From IMG/VR virus record IMGVR_UViG_3300045988_155182: a stretch of 64,000 nt of DNA; one strand, given 5' to 3'. A program made the translations under genes and the position numbers. Below, piece after piece: positions 1,242-56,275 of the stretch. The notes beneath the pieces are model-generated. The model saw only the letters and a program-made list of their open reading frames with translations. It did no database searches and had not been told where the DNA came from. The stretch's first letter is position 1. Every line of letters begins with the position of its first letter. The stretch comes from a virus. Lineage: Duplodnaviria > Heunggongvirae > Uroviricota > Caudoviricetes.

Positions 1242-1249
1242 AACATTGA

Positions 1250-2238
1250 TAATGGCGGTCACAATTTGATTCTTTTCTATAAGAATCCGTTGATCGCCAC
1301 TACTCCCCTTCCATACCCGCAATCACATCCTTAAATATCAATAAGTTATAGTTGTTTATACAATCAAGAAAACAACTGAATAACAGATCAACGAAACATC
1401 AACGCTTTCACCCGATTTGGTCTAAAAAATTGACGTTTTCACACATCACTGCTTATACCCGTAATTCTACGCAGCAGACAGCGCCACAGCGTCCAATTTT
1501 CACCACAGACGACCCAACACACTACCAACAAAAACACACGCTCAAAATCGCTCCCGTTGCGTTACACAACCATATAAACAACTTATTTTCAGGCATAACA
1601 AAACAACTAAATAACACACATGCCATTTCCAAAAACAACCAACCTCTTTATGGCAGGCTACCGAAAAGACCCACCTCTTCTCCCCAGGCTACCGGACAAC
1701 CAACCTAACTTTCACAGGCAATCCGAAAACATTCATACGCGCGATACCCACGACACGCCATTACCCAAACAGCGAAGAAACACCAGAATCACTGAACCCC
1801 CAACGAAGCCTGTAACCGCAAGGCTTCTCTCAATCCCAAAAGACACGAAACAGAACAATCACGGGAAACGCCATTACCCAACACACGAATAACTACAAAA
1901 GCCTTTCACACTCCAGACAAACAACTCAAACACAATAACGAAAGCAATCGCCCACCTGCCATTACTCCATACACGGAGAAGAACAATCACCAAAACGACG
2001 AGAACACCCCATAGAAGAACCACCGCAAAACGAACGAAACCACATACACCGACAGAGAGAACAACACACCCAATTCACCAACAGAATTAGTCGCCGTATA
2101 GAACGTTCTGGAAGGAGTGAGTATTAACGTCCATAGAGAGGTTGAGACAGATAAAACACGAATAAAACACAACATGTATAGCGAAGAAGCCAGGTATGTA
2201 TAAGTGGGGAGAGAAGGAGGGGTGTCGCCTCCTTTTTC
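1250..2238 (+). ncRNA. Candidate long non-coding transcript: strongly A+C-rich, G+T-poor tract ending at a rho-independent terminator
   Basis: Plus strand visibly dominated by A and C for about 0.8 kb; ORFs here give low-complexity T/P/Q/H/N peptides with no RBS; possible -35-like TTGATA near 1245 and an operator-like caagaaaacaa near 1365; hairpin plus T-run at 2215-2238. Confidence 0.3.
2215..2238 (+). terminator. Rho-independent terminator (aggagg-loop-cctcct + TTTTT)
   Basis: GC hairpin followed by T-run, seen directly. Confidence 0.55.
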
Positions 2239-2302
2239 GTATTTATTCAACTCCTGATTTTACCCCCCCCGTAACACCCCTACGGTCAGCCTTCGGTCCA
2301 TA

Positions 2303-2437
2303 CAGGGAAAAGGCTGCATCCCGCTACAGAAACGGCTGGGTTGCCTTCGGGGAACGGCTGGAGGTTTTCAGGGAAACGGTCGAGTTGCCTGTGTGGATTT
2401 CGGGAAAAGGCTCGATGCCGGTTCAGGAACGGTGGCG
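2303..2437. repeat. Iteron-like cluster 1: six direct repeats, consensus about cRGGRAAMGGYYG, starting near 2303, 2326, 2348, 2369, 2400, 2424
   Basis: Direct repeats at about 21-23 bp spacing (one 32 bp gap), i.e. roughly two helical turns; seen directly. Confidence 0.55.
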
Positions 2438-2745
2438 TACCGGTATAGCGAGAGGGAGAGTTGCGGCTACCCACCTGTAATGTGCGGGAAGAAGAGAGGC
2501 GCTCACGTGCAGGCGAACTTACTTACCGCTGGATTCCCTCTGAATGCCCAGCTACAGCGTAATTGTGCCAGACAGCCAACGGGTCACAATCGATTTCAGT
2601 AGGTTTTCGGGGAGATGATTATTCTGCCCACCAGCCACCTTCGGCCACTAAATCAGAATAATGTAAAAAGTGTACTCGGTACTGAACCTGAAAACTCACT
2701 GCCAAAACCACATTCACCGGAATAAAATCCTTTTTCGCCTGTGCG

Positions 2746-3251: not shown

Positions 3252-3270
3252 GAGAAAACAAGTTGTTTAC
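3252..3270 (+). promoter_or_regulatory. Early operator palindrome (gagaaaacaagttgtttac)
   Basis: Motif family member immediately upstream of the 3280 gene. Confidence 0.45.
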
Positions 3271-3279
3271 GGAGTTGTG

Positions 3280-3591
3280 ATGAAAAAATCATTGGTTCTT
3301 GGTCTGGACAAAGACCAGAAGAGAAAAGAGAAGCCTGCGCTGGTTGCTCAATTAACTTTGCTGGACATCGTTGCCAATGGAACCTCTATTCGTCTGTTCC
3401 GTGAAACAGCGGTGTCTTTCGATAAAAACACCTTTACTCGTTATGTAATGAATGTTCGTCGCCAGCGTGGAAAAGGCTGGATGGCATTTCAAAGAATGTG
3501 GCCGGAACATCAGCTCGAACTGGCTTTGATGGAAGTTAACCGCGTGGCCCAGCAAGAAATTCAGAGAGCATCAGTGATGGCAATAGCCTGA
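3280..3591 (+). CDS. Hypothetical small basic early protein
   Basis: ORF track 3250..3591; internal ATG at 3280 preceded by GGAG. Confidence 0.5.
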   Translation: MKKSLVLGLDKDQKRKEKPALVAQLTLLDIVANGTSIRLFRETAVSFDKNTFTRYVMNVRRQRGKGWMAFQRMWPEHQLELALMEVNRVAQQEIQRASVMAIA

Positions 3592-3625
3592 TAATGTGCA
3601 AGTGGTAATTAGTCGACAGTACGAC

Positions 3626-3654
3626 AGCCCCGCCATCCTTACGGGGCTTTTTTG
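3626..3654 (+). terminator. Rho-independent terminator (agccccg-loop-cggggct + TTTTTT)
   Basis: Seen directly after the 3280..3591 gene. Confidence 0.6.
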
Positions 3655-3658
3655 TATT

Positions 3659-3674
3659 GTAAGTACATACTTAC
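3659..3674. repeat. GTAAGTA-N2-TACTTAC palindrome (first of at least 16 copies)
   Basis: gtaagtacatacttac; family recurs upstream of many genes across the window. Confidence 0.55.
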
Positions 3675-3717
3675 TATCATAGAATATAAAAATAACCAAA
3701 ACACTACGGAGAGTGAA

Positions 3718-4113
3718 ATGACCGTTAAACGCGAAAAACTGACAGTTGATGTTTACTATGCCTCTGAAACCGCCGAAGGTAAGAATGTGGCAAAAATCAC
3801 CGTTGTTACGTACAACACCGAAACTGGTGCCGAAGTCCAGGCCAGTACGATCGTGCGTAAAGGTGATGCCTCCGACGGCGAGTACGCGACTCAATACCAG
3901 TCTATTTTCGATGCAACTGACCCGCTGCTGCTGAAAATCGAGAACTACTTCCGCCAGGTTGATGAAGAGGTGTTTGAAACCATGATGAATATGGTTAACA
4001 CCGTATTCGCCTCCAACCTGAATACCAACACTGCCTGGATTGGTCAGTACGGCCTGCGCATTACCTCTGGCATTCCTGCCGACACCTTAATCCCTGAAAG
4101 CGTATTCGCTTAA
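3718..4113 (+). CDS. Hypothetical protein (132 aa)
   Basis: ORF track 3652..4113; ATG at 3718 preceded by GGAGAG; lies between a terminator and the next terminator. Confidence 0.5.
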   Translation: MTVKREKLTVDVYYASETAEGKNVAKITVVTYNTETGAEVQASTIVRKGDASDGEYATQYQSIFDATDPLLLKIENYFRQVDEEVFETMMNMVNTVFASNLNTNTAWIGQYGLRITSGIPADTLIPESVFA

Positions 4114-4157: not shown

Positions 4158-4175
4158 ATAACAATTTGTTTTCTG
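4158..4175 (+). promoter_or_regulatory. Early operator palindrome (ataacaatttgttttctg)
   Basis: Motif family member upstream of the 4231 gene. Confidence 0.45.
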
Positions 4176-4756: not shown

Positions 4757-4780
4757 AAGGCCACCAGCATTGGTGGTCTT
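4757..4780 (+). terminator. Hairpin aaggccaccagcattggtggtctt (copy 1 of a repeated hairpin element)
   Basis: Near-identical hairpin at 5228-5251; no clear T-run, so it may be a processing or REP-like element rather than a terminator. Confidence 0.4.
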
Positions 4781-4889: not shown

Positions 4890-4923
4890 GATAATTACAC
4901 CAACAAGAAAACAACATGTTTAC
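4890..4923 (+). promoter_or_regulatory. Conserved early promoter/operator cassette (copy 2)
   Basis: cgataattacaccaacaagaaaacaacatgtttac. Confidence 0.5.
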
Positions 4924-4940: not shown

Positions 4941-5222
4941 ATGACTGATTTCACCATTACCCCTAAAGCACAAAATGTATTCCTTGAATCATGGCTGGAC
5001 TTGCCGGAAACAGAACAGCAAGAAATGGATCATGTGGATTATGACGAGCAGGTAAGCACGCGATTCTTCCACTTTGAGGGATGCGTTTACGACATTGCCG
5101 ACTTCATGCGAGATGACCGCTTCCCTGAATGGCACGCAAGCTATCCACTAAACGCCTTTGCCATGCTGATGATCCGTGTGGATGATTCAGGGGATACCAT
5201 CGACATCGGTCTGCTCCACTAA
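4941..5222 (+). CDS. Hypothetical small acidic early protein (94 aa)
   Basis: ORF track 4809..5222; ATG at 4941 has GAGGA about 8 nt upstream; the upstream part of the track ORF overlaps the promoter cassette. Confidence 0.5.
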   Translation: MTDFTITPKAQNVFLESWLDLPETEQQEMDHVDYDEQVSTRFFHFEGCVYDIADFMRDDRFPEWHASYPLNAFAMLMIRVDDSGDTIDIGLLH

Positions 5223-5227
5223 AGATT

Positions 5228-5251
5228 AAGGCCACCAATGCTGGTGGCCTT
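5228..5251 (+). terminator. Hairpin aaggccaccaatgctggtggcctt (copy 2)
   Basis: Seen directly. Confidence 0.4.
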
Positions 5252-5375
5252 AAATGACCATCCTGTTTCCCGCAGGCTAAAAACACCAACCTCTTACCTC
5301 CAGGCAACCGACAAACCCACCTGTTCCCGTCCGGCTACCTCAACTTTCCACTTTGACGCCTTATTCATACAACGA

Positions 5376-5409
5376 TAATTAACACCAACAAGAAAACAAT
5401 TTGTTATTT
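5376..5409 (+). promoter_or_regulatory. Conserved early promoter/operator cassette (copy 3)
   Basis: cgataattaacaccaacaagaaaacaatttgttattt. Confidence 0.5.
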
Positions 5410-5426
5410 ACGATAAGGAATTAATC

Positions 5427-5909
5427 ATGAATTTTATCGCTACTGTAAACGCACCCGCACATGGCAATATCGCTGTAACGTTCTCTGACATTGAAAAACG
5501 AGTACTTGGTGCATGGCGCGACAATGAGACGGTAGAACTGTCAGCACAAGAAAAATGCATTATTGCACGCGACATCATTGGCAATCGTCGTTACTCGCGG
5601 GTATTTGAGAAAGCGTATGTGGTAAATTCTGGGTTCGGAACGTTCGTCTTTCCGGTGCGCTCAGGGCGATTCTGCCAGTCCAAGCTGATTGAGTTCGCTA
5701 CGCAGATTTCTGTCTGGATTAAAACTCAATCGTCGTTCAAATTTTCCGACGATGAAGCAGTATCGCAGGGGATGCGGATCGCCAACAATGCGATTAAATG
5801 CAAAAACATTACGTATACCGCTGGCGTTGATACATGGAAACTGTTTTGCGCTAACTTTATGCTGAATGTATACGCAAGCAACCGCATCCACATCCTTGAT
5901 GGCGTGTAA
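5427..5909 (+). CDS. Hypothetical protein (160 aa)
   Basis: ORF track; AAGGA upstream of the ATG. Confidence 0.55.
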   Translation: MNFIATVNAPAHGNIAVTFSDIEKRVLGAWRDNETVELSAQEKCIIARDIIGNRRYSRVFEKAYVVNSGFGTFVFPVRSGRFCQSKLIEFATQISVWIKTQSSFKFSDDEAVSQGMRIANNAIKCKNITYTAGVDTWKLFCANFMLNVYASNRIHILDGV

Positions 5910-5915
5910 CTGAGA

Positions 5916-5939
5916 AGAGGGCCAGAAACGGCCCTTTCT
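5916..5939 (+). terminator. Hairpin gagggcc-agaaac-ggccctttct
   Basis: Seen directly after the 5427..5909 gene. Confidence 0.5.
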
Positions 5940-5958
5940 CTATAGCCACCAGCTGCCG

Positions 5959-6039
5959 CAGGGAAATTTTCAGAAACGGCGAGGAACGCATTCATGAGCC
6001 GACGGGGAACGGCCAGGATTTTTTCGGGAAACGGCTGCA
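5959..6039. repeat. Iteron-like cluster 2 (cagggaaatttt, cagaaacggcgagg, cggggaacggccagg, tcgggaaacggctgc)
   Basis: Same repeat family as cluster 1; last two units about 22 bp apart. Confidence 0.5.
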
Positions 6040-6164
6040 TTCGCCTTTATATAGAAAAAACATCGGGAAGCTGGTGGAATCCAACCAGCGGTTGTCGGAC
6101 AGGTGAGCGGGGAAAATTATGATGACTTTCGTCGCCTGAGACATCCAGATTTCTTTCGTAGCGT

Positions 6165-6208
6165 AATCACATATGTGATTAAGTGGTGTGATTATGTGAA
6201 AAATCACG
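6165..6208. promoter_or_regulatory. Operator-like palindromes (aatcacatatgtgatt; tgtgattatgtgaaaaatcacg)
   Basis: Perfect 14 bp palindrome plus related half-sites in a large intergenic region; seen directly. Confidence 0.4.
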
Positions 6209-6494
6209 CGCACATAATACGCGAGCGGATACGGAACAAAACAAAATGCCGATCCGCGCCGACAATTAAACGCGGATCACATAGCAAGAATAAAAGCCAA
6301 TGATTAACCATACACCATAGCGCAATATAACGCGTTTTAAGCGCGTTAATGTGTTGAGTAATGGGTATGTACTGGTAAGGATATAAAAGCGCGTCTGTGG
6401 CGTTATTTTGGCGCTTATTTTATGTTGTTGGAGTGAGTCAAAGACAATAAAAAAGCGCCATCATTGGCGCGTTATGGTGGAAGTATTAGAAACG

Positions 6495-6529
6495 AAAAAA
6501 GCGCCCATAGTGGGCGCTCGATTTTATTT
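6495..6529. terminator. Bidirectional terminator (gcgcccatagtgggcgc flanked by A-run and T-run)
   Basis: Same 17 bp hairpin repeated at 6772-6788. Confidence 0.55.
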
Positions 6530-42082: not shown

Positions 42083-42670
42083 GTGAACATGGACTTCACA
42101 ATGAGTGAACAACCACGGACCATAAAAATTTATAATCTGTTGGCCGGAACCAATGAATTTATTGGTGAAGGTGATGCATATATTCCACCTCATACGGGGC
42201 TGCCAGCTTATTCTACGGATATAGCGCCACCGGATGTACCTGCTGGCTTCGTGGCCGTATTCAACAGCGAAAATAAATCATGGAGTCTCGTTGAAGACCA
42301 CAGGGGTAAAACGGTCTATGACGTGGAATCAGGGGACGCGTTGTTTATTTCTGAACTTGGGCCATTACCGGAAAATGTCACCTGGTTATCACCGGATGGG
42401 GAATATCAGAAGTGGGACGGCACATCCTGGGAGAAGGATGAGGAAACAGAAAAATTGTTTCAGGTACGGGAAGCGGAAGAAACAAAAAAAAGTCTGATGC
42501 AGGTAGCCAGCGAGCACATTGCGCCACTTCAGGATGCTGTAGATTTGGAGATTGCAACGGAGGAAGAAGCATCGTTGCTGACTGCATGGAAGAAGTATAG
42601 AGTTTTATTGAACCGCATTGACACATCAACGGCACCGGATATTGACTGGCCAACAATACCAGCAGAGTAA
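42083..42670 (+). CDS. Tail fibre assembly protein (Tfa)
   Basis: Size and C-terminal W.KYR.LLNRID....DWP..P pattern typical of lambda-type Tfa. Confidence 0.75.
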
Positions 42671-56122: not shown

Positions 56123-56197
56123 GATGGTGTAGCTCAGCGGTAGAGCAGTTGGCTGTTAACCAACTGGTCGGTGGTTCGAATCCACCCACCATCGCCA
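56123..56197 (+). tRNA. tRNA-Asn (anticodon GTT)
   Basis: Acceptor stem gatggtg/caccatc, anticodon loop cTGTTAa, T-loop GGTTCGAATCC, encoded CCA. Confidence 0.8.
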
Positions 56198-56199
56198 AT

Positions 56200-56275
56200 G
56201 CCGGTTTAGCTCAGTTGGTAGAGCGCCTGCCTTGTAAGCAGGATGTCAGCGGTTCGAGTCCGTTAACCGGCACCA
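56200..56275 (+). tRNA. tRNA-Thr (anticodon TGT)
   Basis: Acceptor stem gccggtt/aaccggc, anticodon loop cTTGTAa, T-loop GGTTCGAGTCC, encoded CCA. Confidence 0.8.

Follow-up and report, generated by a model that had tools for sequence, protein, structure and literature searches.

We scrutinized a 64,000-nucleotide (nt) stretch of caudoviral DNA (IMG/VR record IMGVR_UViG_3300045988_155182), hereafter the window, which carries near its left end an unusual A+C-rich tract (positions 1244 to 2238, plus strand). From its sequence, this tract may be a conserved, noncoding, strand-specific Rho-loading transcription barrier that separates cargo genes from an iteron array and the early genes beyond it, a reading to which we assign a probability of roughly 40%. 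Positions 1200 to 2300 matched Escherichia phage Cyrano over their full length at 97.1% identity (megablast), the other matches being to related Escherichia coli phage-plasmids and, in part, to Salmonella phage SSU5; hence, the window belongs to an SSU5-like phage-plasmid. In Cyrano, the gene order is a MetRS cargo gene, the point at which the window starts, two small genes (162 to 461 and 507 to 1241), the tract, and then small plus-strand early genes.

A candidate Rho-dependent transcription barrier

An earlier, preliminary description of this DNA had reported an A+C-rich, G+T-poor tract, and sliding-window composition and skew confirmed it. The maximal A+C segment runs from 1297 to 2086 (790 nt: A 311, C 256, T 130, and G 93) and is 72% A+C, with 12% G and 16% T. 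Across 200-nt sliding windows between 1400 and 2100, GC skew ranged from -0.40 to -0.55 and AT skew from +0.20 to +0.59, while in 700-nt windows the A+C fraction peaked at 0.726, 7 standard deviations (SD) above the mean of the whole stretch (0.504, SD 0.031). No other such tract occurs in the 64 kb, where A+C elsewhere never exceeds 0.62 nor falls below 0.38. The trinucleotides ACA, AAC, CAA, and CAC are among the five commonest in the tract, and the plus strand changes abruptly from C-rich to G-rich at ~2100. As the preliminary description had anticipated, plus-strand RNA from the tract is predicted to be largely unstructured, folding at -7 to -16 kcal/mol per 150 nt vs. -30 to -45 kcal/mol elsewhere; the minus-strand RNA of the tract folds normally.

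For comparison with known Rho-dependent terminators, we used the C>G bubble of Nadiras et al. 2018 (PMC6144790), defined with a 78-nt window in which %C is equal to or greater than %G throughout. All templates tested with a bubble longer than 78 bp or an area above 700 gave Rho-dependent termination in vitro, and %C, %CA, %AAC, %ACA, and %CAC are among the discriminating descriptors (PMC6144790). By this definition, the tract is one unbroken plus-strand bubble of 868 positions (span 1196 to 2140) with an area of 16,031 %xbp; no other bubble on either strand of the window is as large. Between 1241 and 2100 there are 119 YC dimers, and the longest suitably spaced chain comprises 7 of them (criterion, at least 4, spaced 9 to 13 nt apart).

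The left edge of the tract is marked by a two-tier hairpin, with outer arms at 1253-1261 and 1291-1299 and an inner stem at 1268-1274 and 1281-1287 (-17 to -19 kcal/mol, z-score -3.5 to -5.4). No U-run follows it, the next sequence being CACTACTCCCC. The outer 9-bp stem is nearly invariant; the inner stem differs in three clades yet stays paired, and two CGTTGAY motifs flank the hairpin. Rho-dependent transcripts end just past stable stem-loops that lack a U-run, with Rho utilization (rut) sites directly downstream (Dar and Sorek 2018, PMC6061677), and the left-edge hairpin followed by the tract has this same layout.

Expression values came from a re-analysis of LF82 RNA-seq data in which reads from ten samples were mapped to Cyrano (Misson et al. 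2023, PMC9928086, S1 Table; values are log2(5+FPKM), FPKM being fragments per kilobase per million mapped reads). We took the sample labels to denote overnight culture in lysogeny broth (LB) and, at both 1 h and 6 h, bacteria by themselves or following infection of macrophages. These samples are lysogens, not induced cells, and the values are gene-level counts rather than 3'-end mapping. For ciprofloxacin, a 39-fold induction of Cyrano is reported (PMC9928086). CYRAN_103, annotated within the tract (window 1352 to 1708), scored 2.32 in both LB replicates, equivalent to 0 FPKM, and reached a maximum of 4.27 (~14 FPKM) over the ten samples (PMC9928086), values that give no evidence of abundance for the transcribed RNA proposed in the preliminary description. 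CYRAN_102, which ends 110 nt upstream, reached 9.2 (~590 FPKM), and in that same sample CYRAN_103 stood at 2.85 (~2 FPKM) (PMC9928086). At both times after macrophage infection, neighboring early genes rose 4- to 30-fold, to ~180 FPKM, the tract remaining lowest (PMC9928086). In lysogens, RNA signal is essentially nil over the first third of the tract, and upstream transcription ends abruptly at its left edge.

The genes that would read into the tract are varied. Of 29 distinct upstream contexts, 26 have a plus-strand open reading frame (ORF) that ends ~10 to 230 nt before the boundary block, and the longest upstream ORFs are of at least 11 different lengths and thus represent different cargo genes. 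Judged on sequence, the tract has every Rho-terminator property for which we checked: a bubble of at least ~78 to 80 nt, a chain of YC dimers, untranslated and weakly structured RNA, and a U-less hairpin upstream, to which is added the drop in RNA. In the literature searched, no dataset on Rho inhibition, rho mutants, or in vitro termination with Rho was found for an SSU5-like element.

We infer that termination is brought about by Rho and that selection has acted on insulation. Transcripts of any upstream gene would first reach the stable U-tail-less hairpin at 1253-1299; Rho would then load on the tract RNA, catch the polymerase, and release the transcript, which exonucleases would trim back to the hairpin acting as a 3'-end protector. 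The ~31-nt C-rich repeats (1632 to 1728, with relatives at 5251 to 5340 behind another U-less hairpin) would be strong Rho-binding modules, and the purine-rich hairpin or terminator at 2211-2238 would be the last stop before the iterons. The insulated DNA would be the iteron array and the repressor-controlled early genes, and the source of transcription whatever cargo is expressed upstream. As G and U are both depleted, A and C would be left without pairing partners, which would account for a bias toward A+C rather than mere C-richness.

Conservation and distribution of the tract

A blastn search located the tract on 839 PLSDB plasmids, whose hosts include Klebsiella, Escherichia, Enterobacter, Salmonella (including pHCM2), Citrobacter, and Cronobacter, as well as in 12 phage records, all of them SSU5-like. 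Among complete E. coli genomes, 243 of 5,426 (4.5%) carried it, always on a plasmid and never on the chromosome. It is almost never annotated, most plasmid records listing nothing at the locus, and no description of the region was found in the literature searched. The 38 distinct full-length copies formed 8 clusters that were 50 to 88% identical to the window, and A+C was 0.64 to 0.71 in each copy; three further copies, found later, belonged to the same clades and had the same base bias. Searches for distant relatives via a flanking protein, a phage collection, IMG/VR, and species-representative genomes, the last two with block 1414-1461 as the search pattern, returned none beyond the same few SSU5-like clades, and covariation power is consequently low. 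Two species-representative assemblies placed the tract in unrelated phyla, a metagenome-assembled genome labeled 'Bacillota bacterium' (L055, JAEWTL010000044.1) and a 604-nt contig of Catenulispora yoronensis (L056); both are 91 to 98% identical to known clades and most likely reflect contamination or mis-binning.

Some copies are rearranged. L014 (IMGVR_UViG_2606217110_000013) has a fourth 31-nt repeat unit, and unrelated DNA replaces its iterons. Homology breaks off near window position 1905 to 1960 in L021 and L010, where DNA was apparently inserted or rearranged; L010 represents a piece of the tract within a 203-kb Klebsiella IncFIB/IncHI1B plasmid.

Relatives keep the tract about as well as they keep neighboring genes. 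It was found in more loci than any flanking gene, and its identity between clades was 0.66 to 0.83 vs. 0.57 to 0.72 for coding genes at 3301-4100. Four-fold degenerate sites of a neighboring gene were only ~35% identical, a comparison weakened by mosaicism, as exemplified by L009, which is 100% identical in that gene and 77% in the tract. About half of the tract consists of blocks at 90 to 100% conservation, interleaved with diverged spacers. Columns that vary among three clades are still 60 to 71% A+C, and A<->C exchanges were the commonest class of substitution (65 to 98 events) and G<->T the rarest (8 to 18). The conserved motif blocks and the biased variable columns together indicate two layers of constraint, one on specific motifs and one on the base composition of a single strand.

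Anatomy of the tract

The tract comprises the following features.

1244 to 1299, plus strand: left boundary block, delimited by alignments; homology among all clades begins 3 nt past the upstream stop codon
1297 to 2086, plus strand: A+C-rich, G+T-poor noncoding core, recognized by composition, lack of a conserved ORF, and very weak folding
1366 to 1375, plus strand: AAGAAAACAA, a match to the left half of the early-promoter operator and invariant across clades
1387 to 1404, plus strand: two ATCAACG direct repeats, 11 bp apart, the reverse complement of the boundary-block CGTTGAY
1414 to 1461, plus strand: most conserved block, part of a conserved stretch at 1366-1461, with an A-tract, TTGACG (1430-1435), a variable 18-nt spacer, and TATACC (1454-1459)
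1575 to 1590, plus strand: operator-like palindrome TAAACAACTTATTTTC, intact as AAACAAGTTGTTTT in other clades
1632 to 1728, plus strand: three tandem ~31-nt C-rich units, CAGGCTACC-GAAAAG-ACCCACCTCTTCTCC, paralogous to 5251-5340; four units in L014
1757 to 1986, plus strand: dispersed direct repeats GCCATTACyyCAwAyrCGGAGAAGAAC, of GCCATTAC...CGGAGAAGAAC type, starting at 1757, 1870, and 1958
2198 to 2238, plus strand: right end, with conserved GTATAAGT and then a polypurine G-run (2206-2222) serving as the 5' hairpin arm

All of the degenerate repeats listed in the preliminary description are present, at 1632-1728 and at 1757, 1870, and 1958. Repeats of the GCCATTAC family occur in a single orientation with 3 to 6 copies per relative; the 8-mer itself is found 9 times in the window vs. 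1.8 expected, and the extended motif occurs only in the tract. An AT-rich patch at 1320-1360 is confined to one clade.

At both ends of the tract, the preliminary description needs correction. The promoter-like sequence at its start is real insofar as a match exists at 1225-1253 (TAAACA-17-GATAAT, 9/12), which is weak and restricted to the window's own clade. The only sigma-70-like site whose position is conserved across clades lies in the first block (TTGACA-16-GAGGAT/GATTCT) and is likewise weak, its -10 matching at 3/6 positions. Block 1414-1461 is also promoter-like, with a -10 lacking T at -7 except in clade L009 (TATACT). At the right end, the clean terminator described at 2215-2238 was recovered by our scan as a hairpin at 2211-2238; the T-run after it, which makes it terminator-like, occurs only in the window's clade. 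Other clades have at this place a weaker purine/pyrimidine hairpin with two compensatory pairs and no U-tail. From their sequences, the operator-like blocks, promoter-like blocks, and GCCATTAC repeats are embedded candidate regulatory sites, and AAACAAnnTTGTTT, CGTTGAY, GCCATTAC, and GRAAMGGY are putative protein-binding motifs of the element.

Coding potential and known RNAs

The tract is noncoding, as the preliminary description had held. At least five stop codons interrupt all six frames of every relative, the longest open frames are not the same among relatives that are 93 to 98% identical, and only 2 to 4 of 8 to 13 tract indels are divisible by three. The ORFs singled out earlier, at 1352-1708 and 1620-1892, do exist, have no Shine-Dalgarno sequence upstream, and are not conserved. 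The NCBI Prokaryotic Genome Annotation Pipeline (PGAP) places no coding sequence over the equivalent of 1241 to 2795. Frames with stops, the lack of a conserved ORF, and the empty PGAP annotation reject a protein-coding role on either strand; minus-strand ORFs, which are G/T-rich, would encode hydrophobic peptides, and none is conserved. A pseudogene of a neighboring early gene was rejected as well, since neither tblastn nor blastn found similarity of the tract to early genes or their proteins.

Rfam 15 contained nothing that matched the tract at gathering score; two sub-gathering matches were at chance level (E 0.6 to 0.95) and lay upstream or overlapped only the tract's first bases. Weak folding, with z-scores of just -0.9 to -1.8, disposes of a structured RNA, and pairing at long range between the C-rich repeats and the G-rich 3' end, suggested by inverted repeats, did not exceed shuffles. 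The preliminary description had proposed a sponge for an RNA-binding protein, and the two concrete versions of this idea both failed. For Hfq, (ARN)n runs of at least four triplets were absent vs. 1.3 expected from shuffles. For CsrA, the window's tract holds 5 GGA vs. 6.1 expected, with enrichment in one of five clades and unconserved positions; the GCCAUUAC...AUACACGGAG repeats resemble the consensus RUACARGGAUGU from SELEX (systematic evolution of ligands by exponential enrichment), yet GGA is neither enriched nor conserved. An antisense regulator was discounted for want of complementarity to other parts of the window. The 31-nt repeats also suggested a type III toxin-antitoxin RNA array, an idea that was rejected: the gene after the second copy of the repeats has no Pfam or PADLOC match, and a promoter intervenes. 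Binding sites for the small helix-turn-helix-like SSU5_116 protein were set aside, its gene being absent from the window.

Points against a barrier, and a possible lytic-phase RNA

Several observations weigh against a Rho-dependent barrier. Known rut regions measure ~80 to 200 nt, and the model requires nothing like 850 nt. Composition would suffice for Rho loading, yet about half of the tract consists of the blocks conserved at 90 to 100%, and overall its conservation resembles that of neighboring genes. Two Klebsiella contexts keep the tract without an incoming plus-strand gene. The drop in RNA-seq signal could also be produced by the hairpin alone or by RNA decay, and the underlying read counting is not confirmed to be strand-specific. 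Promoter-like blocks within a barrier are likewise unexplained. Our estimate of 40% reflects the 850-nt length, the conserved blocks, and the two gene-less contexts, none of which the model explains.

Unlikely, in our judgment, is a role for the tract as the template of a lytic-phase, unstructured A/C RNA of ~0.75 to 0.95 kb that ends at 2238 and, as a decoy acting in trans, occupies a host factor that binds single-stranded RNA. Its promoter, either repressed or dependent on an activator, would lie in 1414-1461 or in the boundary block and fire on induction, and Rho, a nuclease, or a chaperone would be bound at the repeats. The module has the shape of a transcription unit, beginning at a TTGACA-like hexamer and ending at a hairpin, and block 1414-1461 consists of two conserved hexamers around a variable spacer. 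Sequences like the operator of the early-gene repressor lie within it, and a variable A/C scaffold with same-orientation repeats that change in copy number (3 to 6 and 3 to 4) is sponge-like. The weak signal of the tract also rose 2- to 4-fold, together with the early genes, after macrophage infection. Against such an RNA, expression was 0 to 14 FPKM in all ten samples, even where early genes reached ~180 FPKM, although the samples, being lysogens, leave room for a transcript of the lytic phase. Both candidate -10 elements are poor for sigma-70 (T at -7 is missing from TATACC outside clade L009, and GAGGAT/GATTCT agrees at only 3/6 positions), CsrA and Hfq motifs are not enriched, and there is no antisense target in the window. 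Furthermore, the second C-rich copy lies between a hairpin and a promoter, outside any evident transcription unit, and an untranslated C-rich RNA is itself subject to Rho termination unless the polymerase is modified.

After induction, an antitermination-modified or activator-dependent polymerase might make a ~0.9-kb RNA almost entirely of A and C that acts as a decoy for the Rho hexamer or for another single-strand RNA-binding defense or decay factor, a conjecture to which we give little credence. If true, the tract would be an RNA counterpart of Psu, the protein Rho inhibitor of phage P4, and would lift Rho silencing of lytic genes.

Iterons, the second repeat block, and early genes

Outside the tract, four further kinds of feature are as follows.

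2299 to 2445, plus strand: iteron cluster 1, six 22-bp units with core GRAAMGGY, outside the tract, 60 bp past it, and linked to it in most relatives
5251 to 5340, plus strand: second C-rich repeat block, three ~30-nt units, after a U-less hairpin (5226-5253) and upstream of an early promoter
5925 to 6035, plus strand: iteron cluster 2, four copies, the only other cluster of GRAAMGGY iterons
84-98, 135-148, 2769-2783, 3255-3268, 4160-4174, 4906-4920, and 5391-5407: early promoter modules

The shorter related block that the preliminary description had noticed near 5260-5340 corresponds to the three units at 5251-5340. It lies within the second-largest plus-strand C>G bubble of the window (5181-5527, area 3,876), and the layout of this region repeats that of the tract, namely a gene end, a U-less hairpin, and C-rich repeats. 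The parallel extends further: both times, the C-rich repeats are followed by an iteron cluster, at a distance of 571 bp in the first case and 585 bp in the second. This interval contains a promoter and a gene of 160 amino acids (phrog_1641) in the second copy and, in the first, noncoding A+C-rich DNA with no detectable similarity to that gene.

The two iteron clusters are 3.6 kb apart, bracket the small early genes, and are the only two in a complete 109-kb relative. Conserved cores are separated by variable spacers, and whole 22-bp units have been gained or lost with no RNA covariation, a pattern that indicates protein sites rather than RNA. They were considered as RepA iterons and rejected, the latter being 21 bp long, unrelated in sequence, and 34 kb distant.

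With this array immediately downstream, the tract may be the unusual origin element raised in the preliminary description. We nevertheless regard it as doubtful that the tract assists, at the DNA level, a lytic origin or other nucleoprotein hub, in which its repeats and palindromes would be protein sites working with the 22-bp iterons, and in which replication may be activated or primed by transcription that reaches or enters the G-rich end. Such a role is suggested by the position of the six iterons just 60 bp past the tract, with conserved cores and units gained and lost, by their clustering at one other place, 3.6 kb away, in the 109-kb relative, and by the C-rich repeats that lie 571 bp and 585 bp ahead of the respective clusters. 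The sharp C-rich to G-rich switch at ~2100, the dissimilarity of these iterons to the distant plasmid RepA iterons, and the fact that the element encodes its own replisome point the same way. Conversely, there are no DnaA boxes in the region, which rules against a DnaA-dependent origin, and no conserved AT-rich unwinding element, the tract being 44 to 47% GC and the patch at 1320-1360 limited to one clade. L014 keeps the tract with different DNA in place of the iterons, so the two are separable. Whole-genome skew gives no origin signal, coding-strand bias dominating, and we know of no origin with an amino/keto strand bias over 800 bp.

The early promoter module, present at each of the small early genes that follow the tract, comprises an extended -10 (TGnGATAAT-like) overlapped by a palindromic operator, AAAACAAnnTTGTTT, and its recurrence implies that one repressor probably controls many small genes. 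CYRAN_98, encoding a LexA-like S24 peptidase upstream of the window, rose from log2 7.4 to 12.3 after macrophage infection (PMC9928086). Operator-bearing early genes were 4- to 10-fold up under these conditions, in which no virions are reported to be made in macrophages (PMC9928086).

It is very improbable that the tract is a decaying relic, in which several early-gene cassettes shed their genes, leaving behind a string of A/C-rich promoter and leader modules that persist by linkage and recent spread. Segments 1340-1385 and 1555-1612 do resemble -10/operator modules, which are themselves A/C-rich, and 1632-1760 can be aligned to the DNA that precedes the promoter at 5356-5385, with a degenerate GATACC for GATAAT. 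By contrast, 1760-2200 has no detectable similarity to early genes, the 90 to 100% blocks alternate with diverged spacers that retain the base bias, and the tract occurs in more relatives than any flanking gene, with an identity (0.66 to 0.83 vs. 0.57 to 0.72 for genes) whose weight is reduced by mosaicism.

Other features of the window were recorded in passing. The E. coli Chi octamer GCTGGTGG occurs 16 times in 64 kb vs. 1.3 expected from shuffles, an excess that suggests selection for RecBCD protection; examples are at 2628-2635 (minus strand), 4761-4768 (minus), 5240-5247 (plus), 5946-5953 (minus), and 6070-6077 (plus), and several copies lie within terminator hairpins or beside iteron clusters. 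At 6100-6520, where rightward early genes and leftward genes converge, palindromes are dense and hairpins of the AAAAGCGCC...GGCGC type are repeated. Rfam searches also found a full-length match to the IS009 RNA family at 42432-42630 (plus strand; 189.6 bits vs. a gathering score of 117) and two adjacent tRNA genes at 56123-56194 and 56200-56272 (plus strand; ~75 bits each).

Comparison with known systems

Rho-dependent terminators such as lambda tR1 and trp t' share with the tract untranslated, unstructured RNA, an excess of C over G, spaced YC dimers, a U-less stem-loop, and a collapse in signal. Unlike known rut regions, the tract is ~5 to 10 times longer, is conserved in sequence and not just in composition, contains three direct-repeat families along with operator-like sites, and is depleted of U besides G; its dependence on Rho is a prediction.

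Sponge RNAs (CsrB/CsrC for CsrA; CrcZ for Hfq/Crc) are likewise long and noncoding, with short repeats of varying copy number on a variable, accessible scaffold. In the tract, however, GGA and (ARN)n are not enriched, no transcript was seen in lysogens, there is no Rfam match, and one repeat family is also found in seemingly untranscribed DNA upstream of a promoter.

The locus also recalls iteron origins, of which P4 ori/crr has a two-cluster layout and the R6K gamma ori has 22-bp iterons: here too, the cores of the 22-bp direct repeats are conserved, there is a second cluster at a distance of 3.6 kb, and both are distinct from the RepA iterons. The tract itself differs in that it is not built of iterons, has neither DnaA boxes nor an AT-rich unwinding region, and has no linked initiator protein. 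Finally, the omega leader of tobacco mosaic virus, a G-poor, CAA-rich translational enhancer, resembles the tract in its A+C-rich, G-poor, unstructured sense strand, but no ORF follows the tract, the next gene lying 560 nt past the terminator with its own promoter.

If Rho dependence holds, the tract would be a rut region of exceptional length, conserved in sequence and bearing repeats, that lies where modules of a mobile element meet, and its mechanism most likely an extension of known biology.

Implications for phage-plasmid biology

SSU5-like phage-plasmids are common in clinical Enterobacteriaceae, and their cargo includes resistance genes as well as restriction systems. At the seam between this swappable cargo and the lytic early genes, the tract forms a conserved, unannotated kilobase and is a candidate device for accepting arbitrary transcribed cargo without leak into lytic functions. 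All three readings, as barrier, decoy RNA, or part of a lytic origin, can be addressed in the existing Cyrano and E. coli LF82 system. Should the tract instead prove to be a decoy RNA or part of a lytic origin, it would give a new handle on phage-plasmid lifestyle switching. If it is a barrier, it would be a Rho-loading module of unusual size and conserved sequence, as well as an insulator part that is ready to use and specific for orientation.

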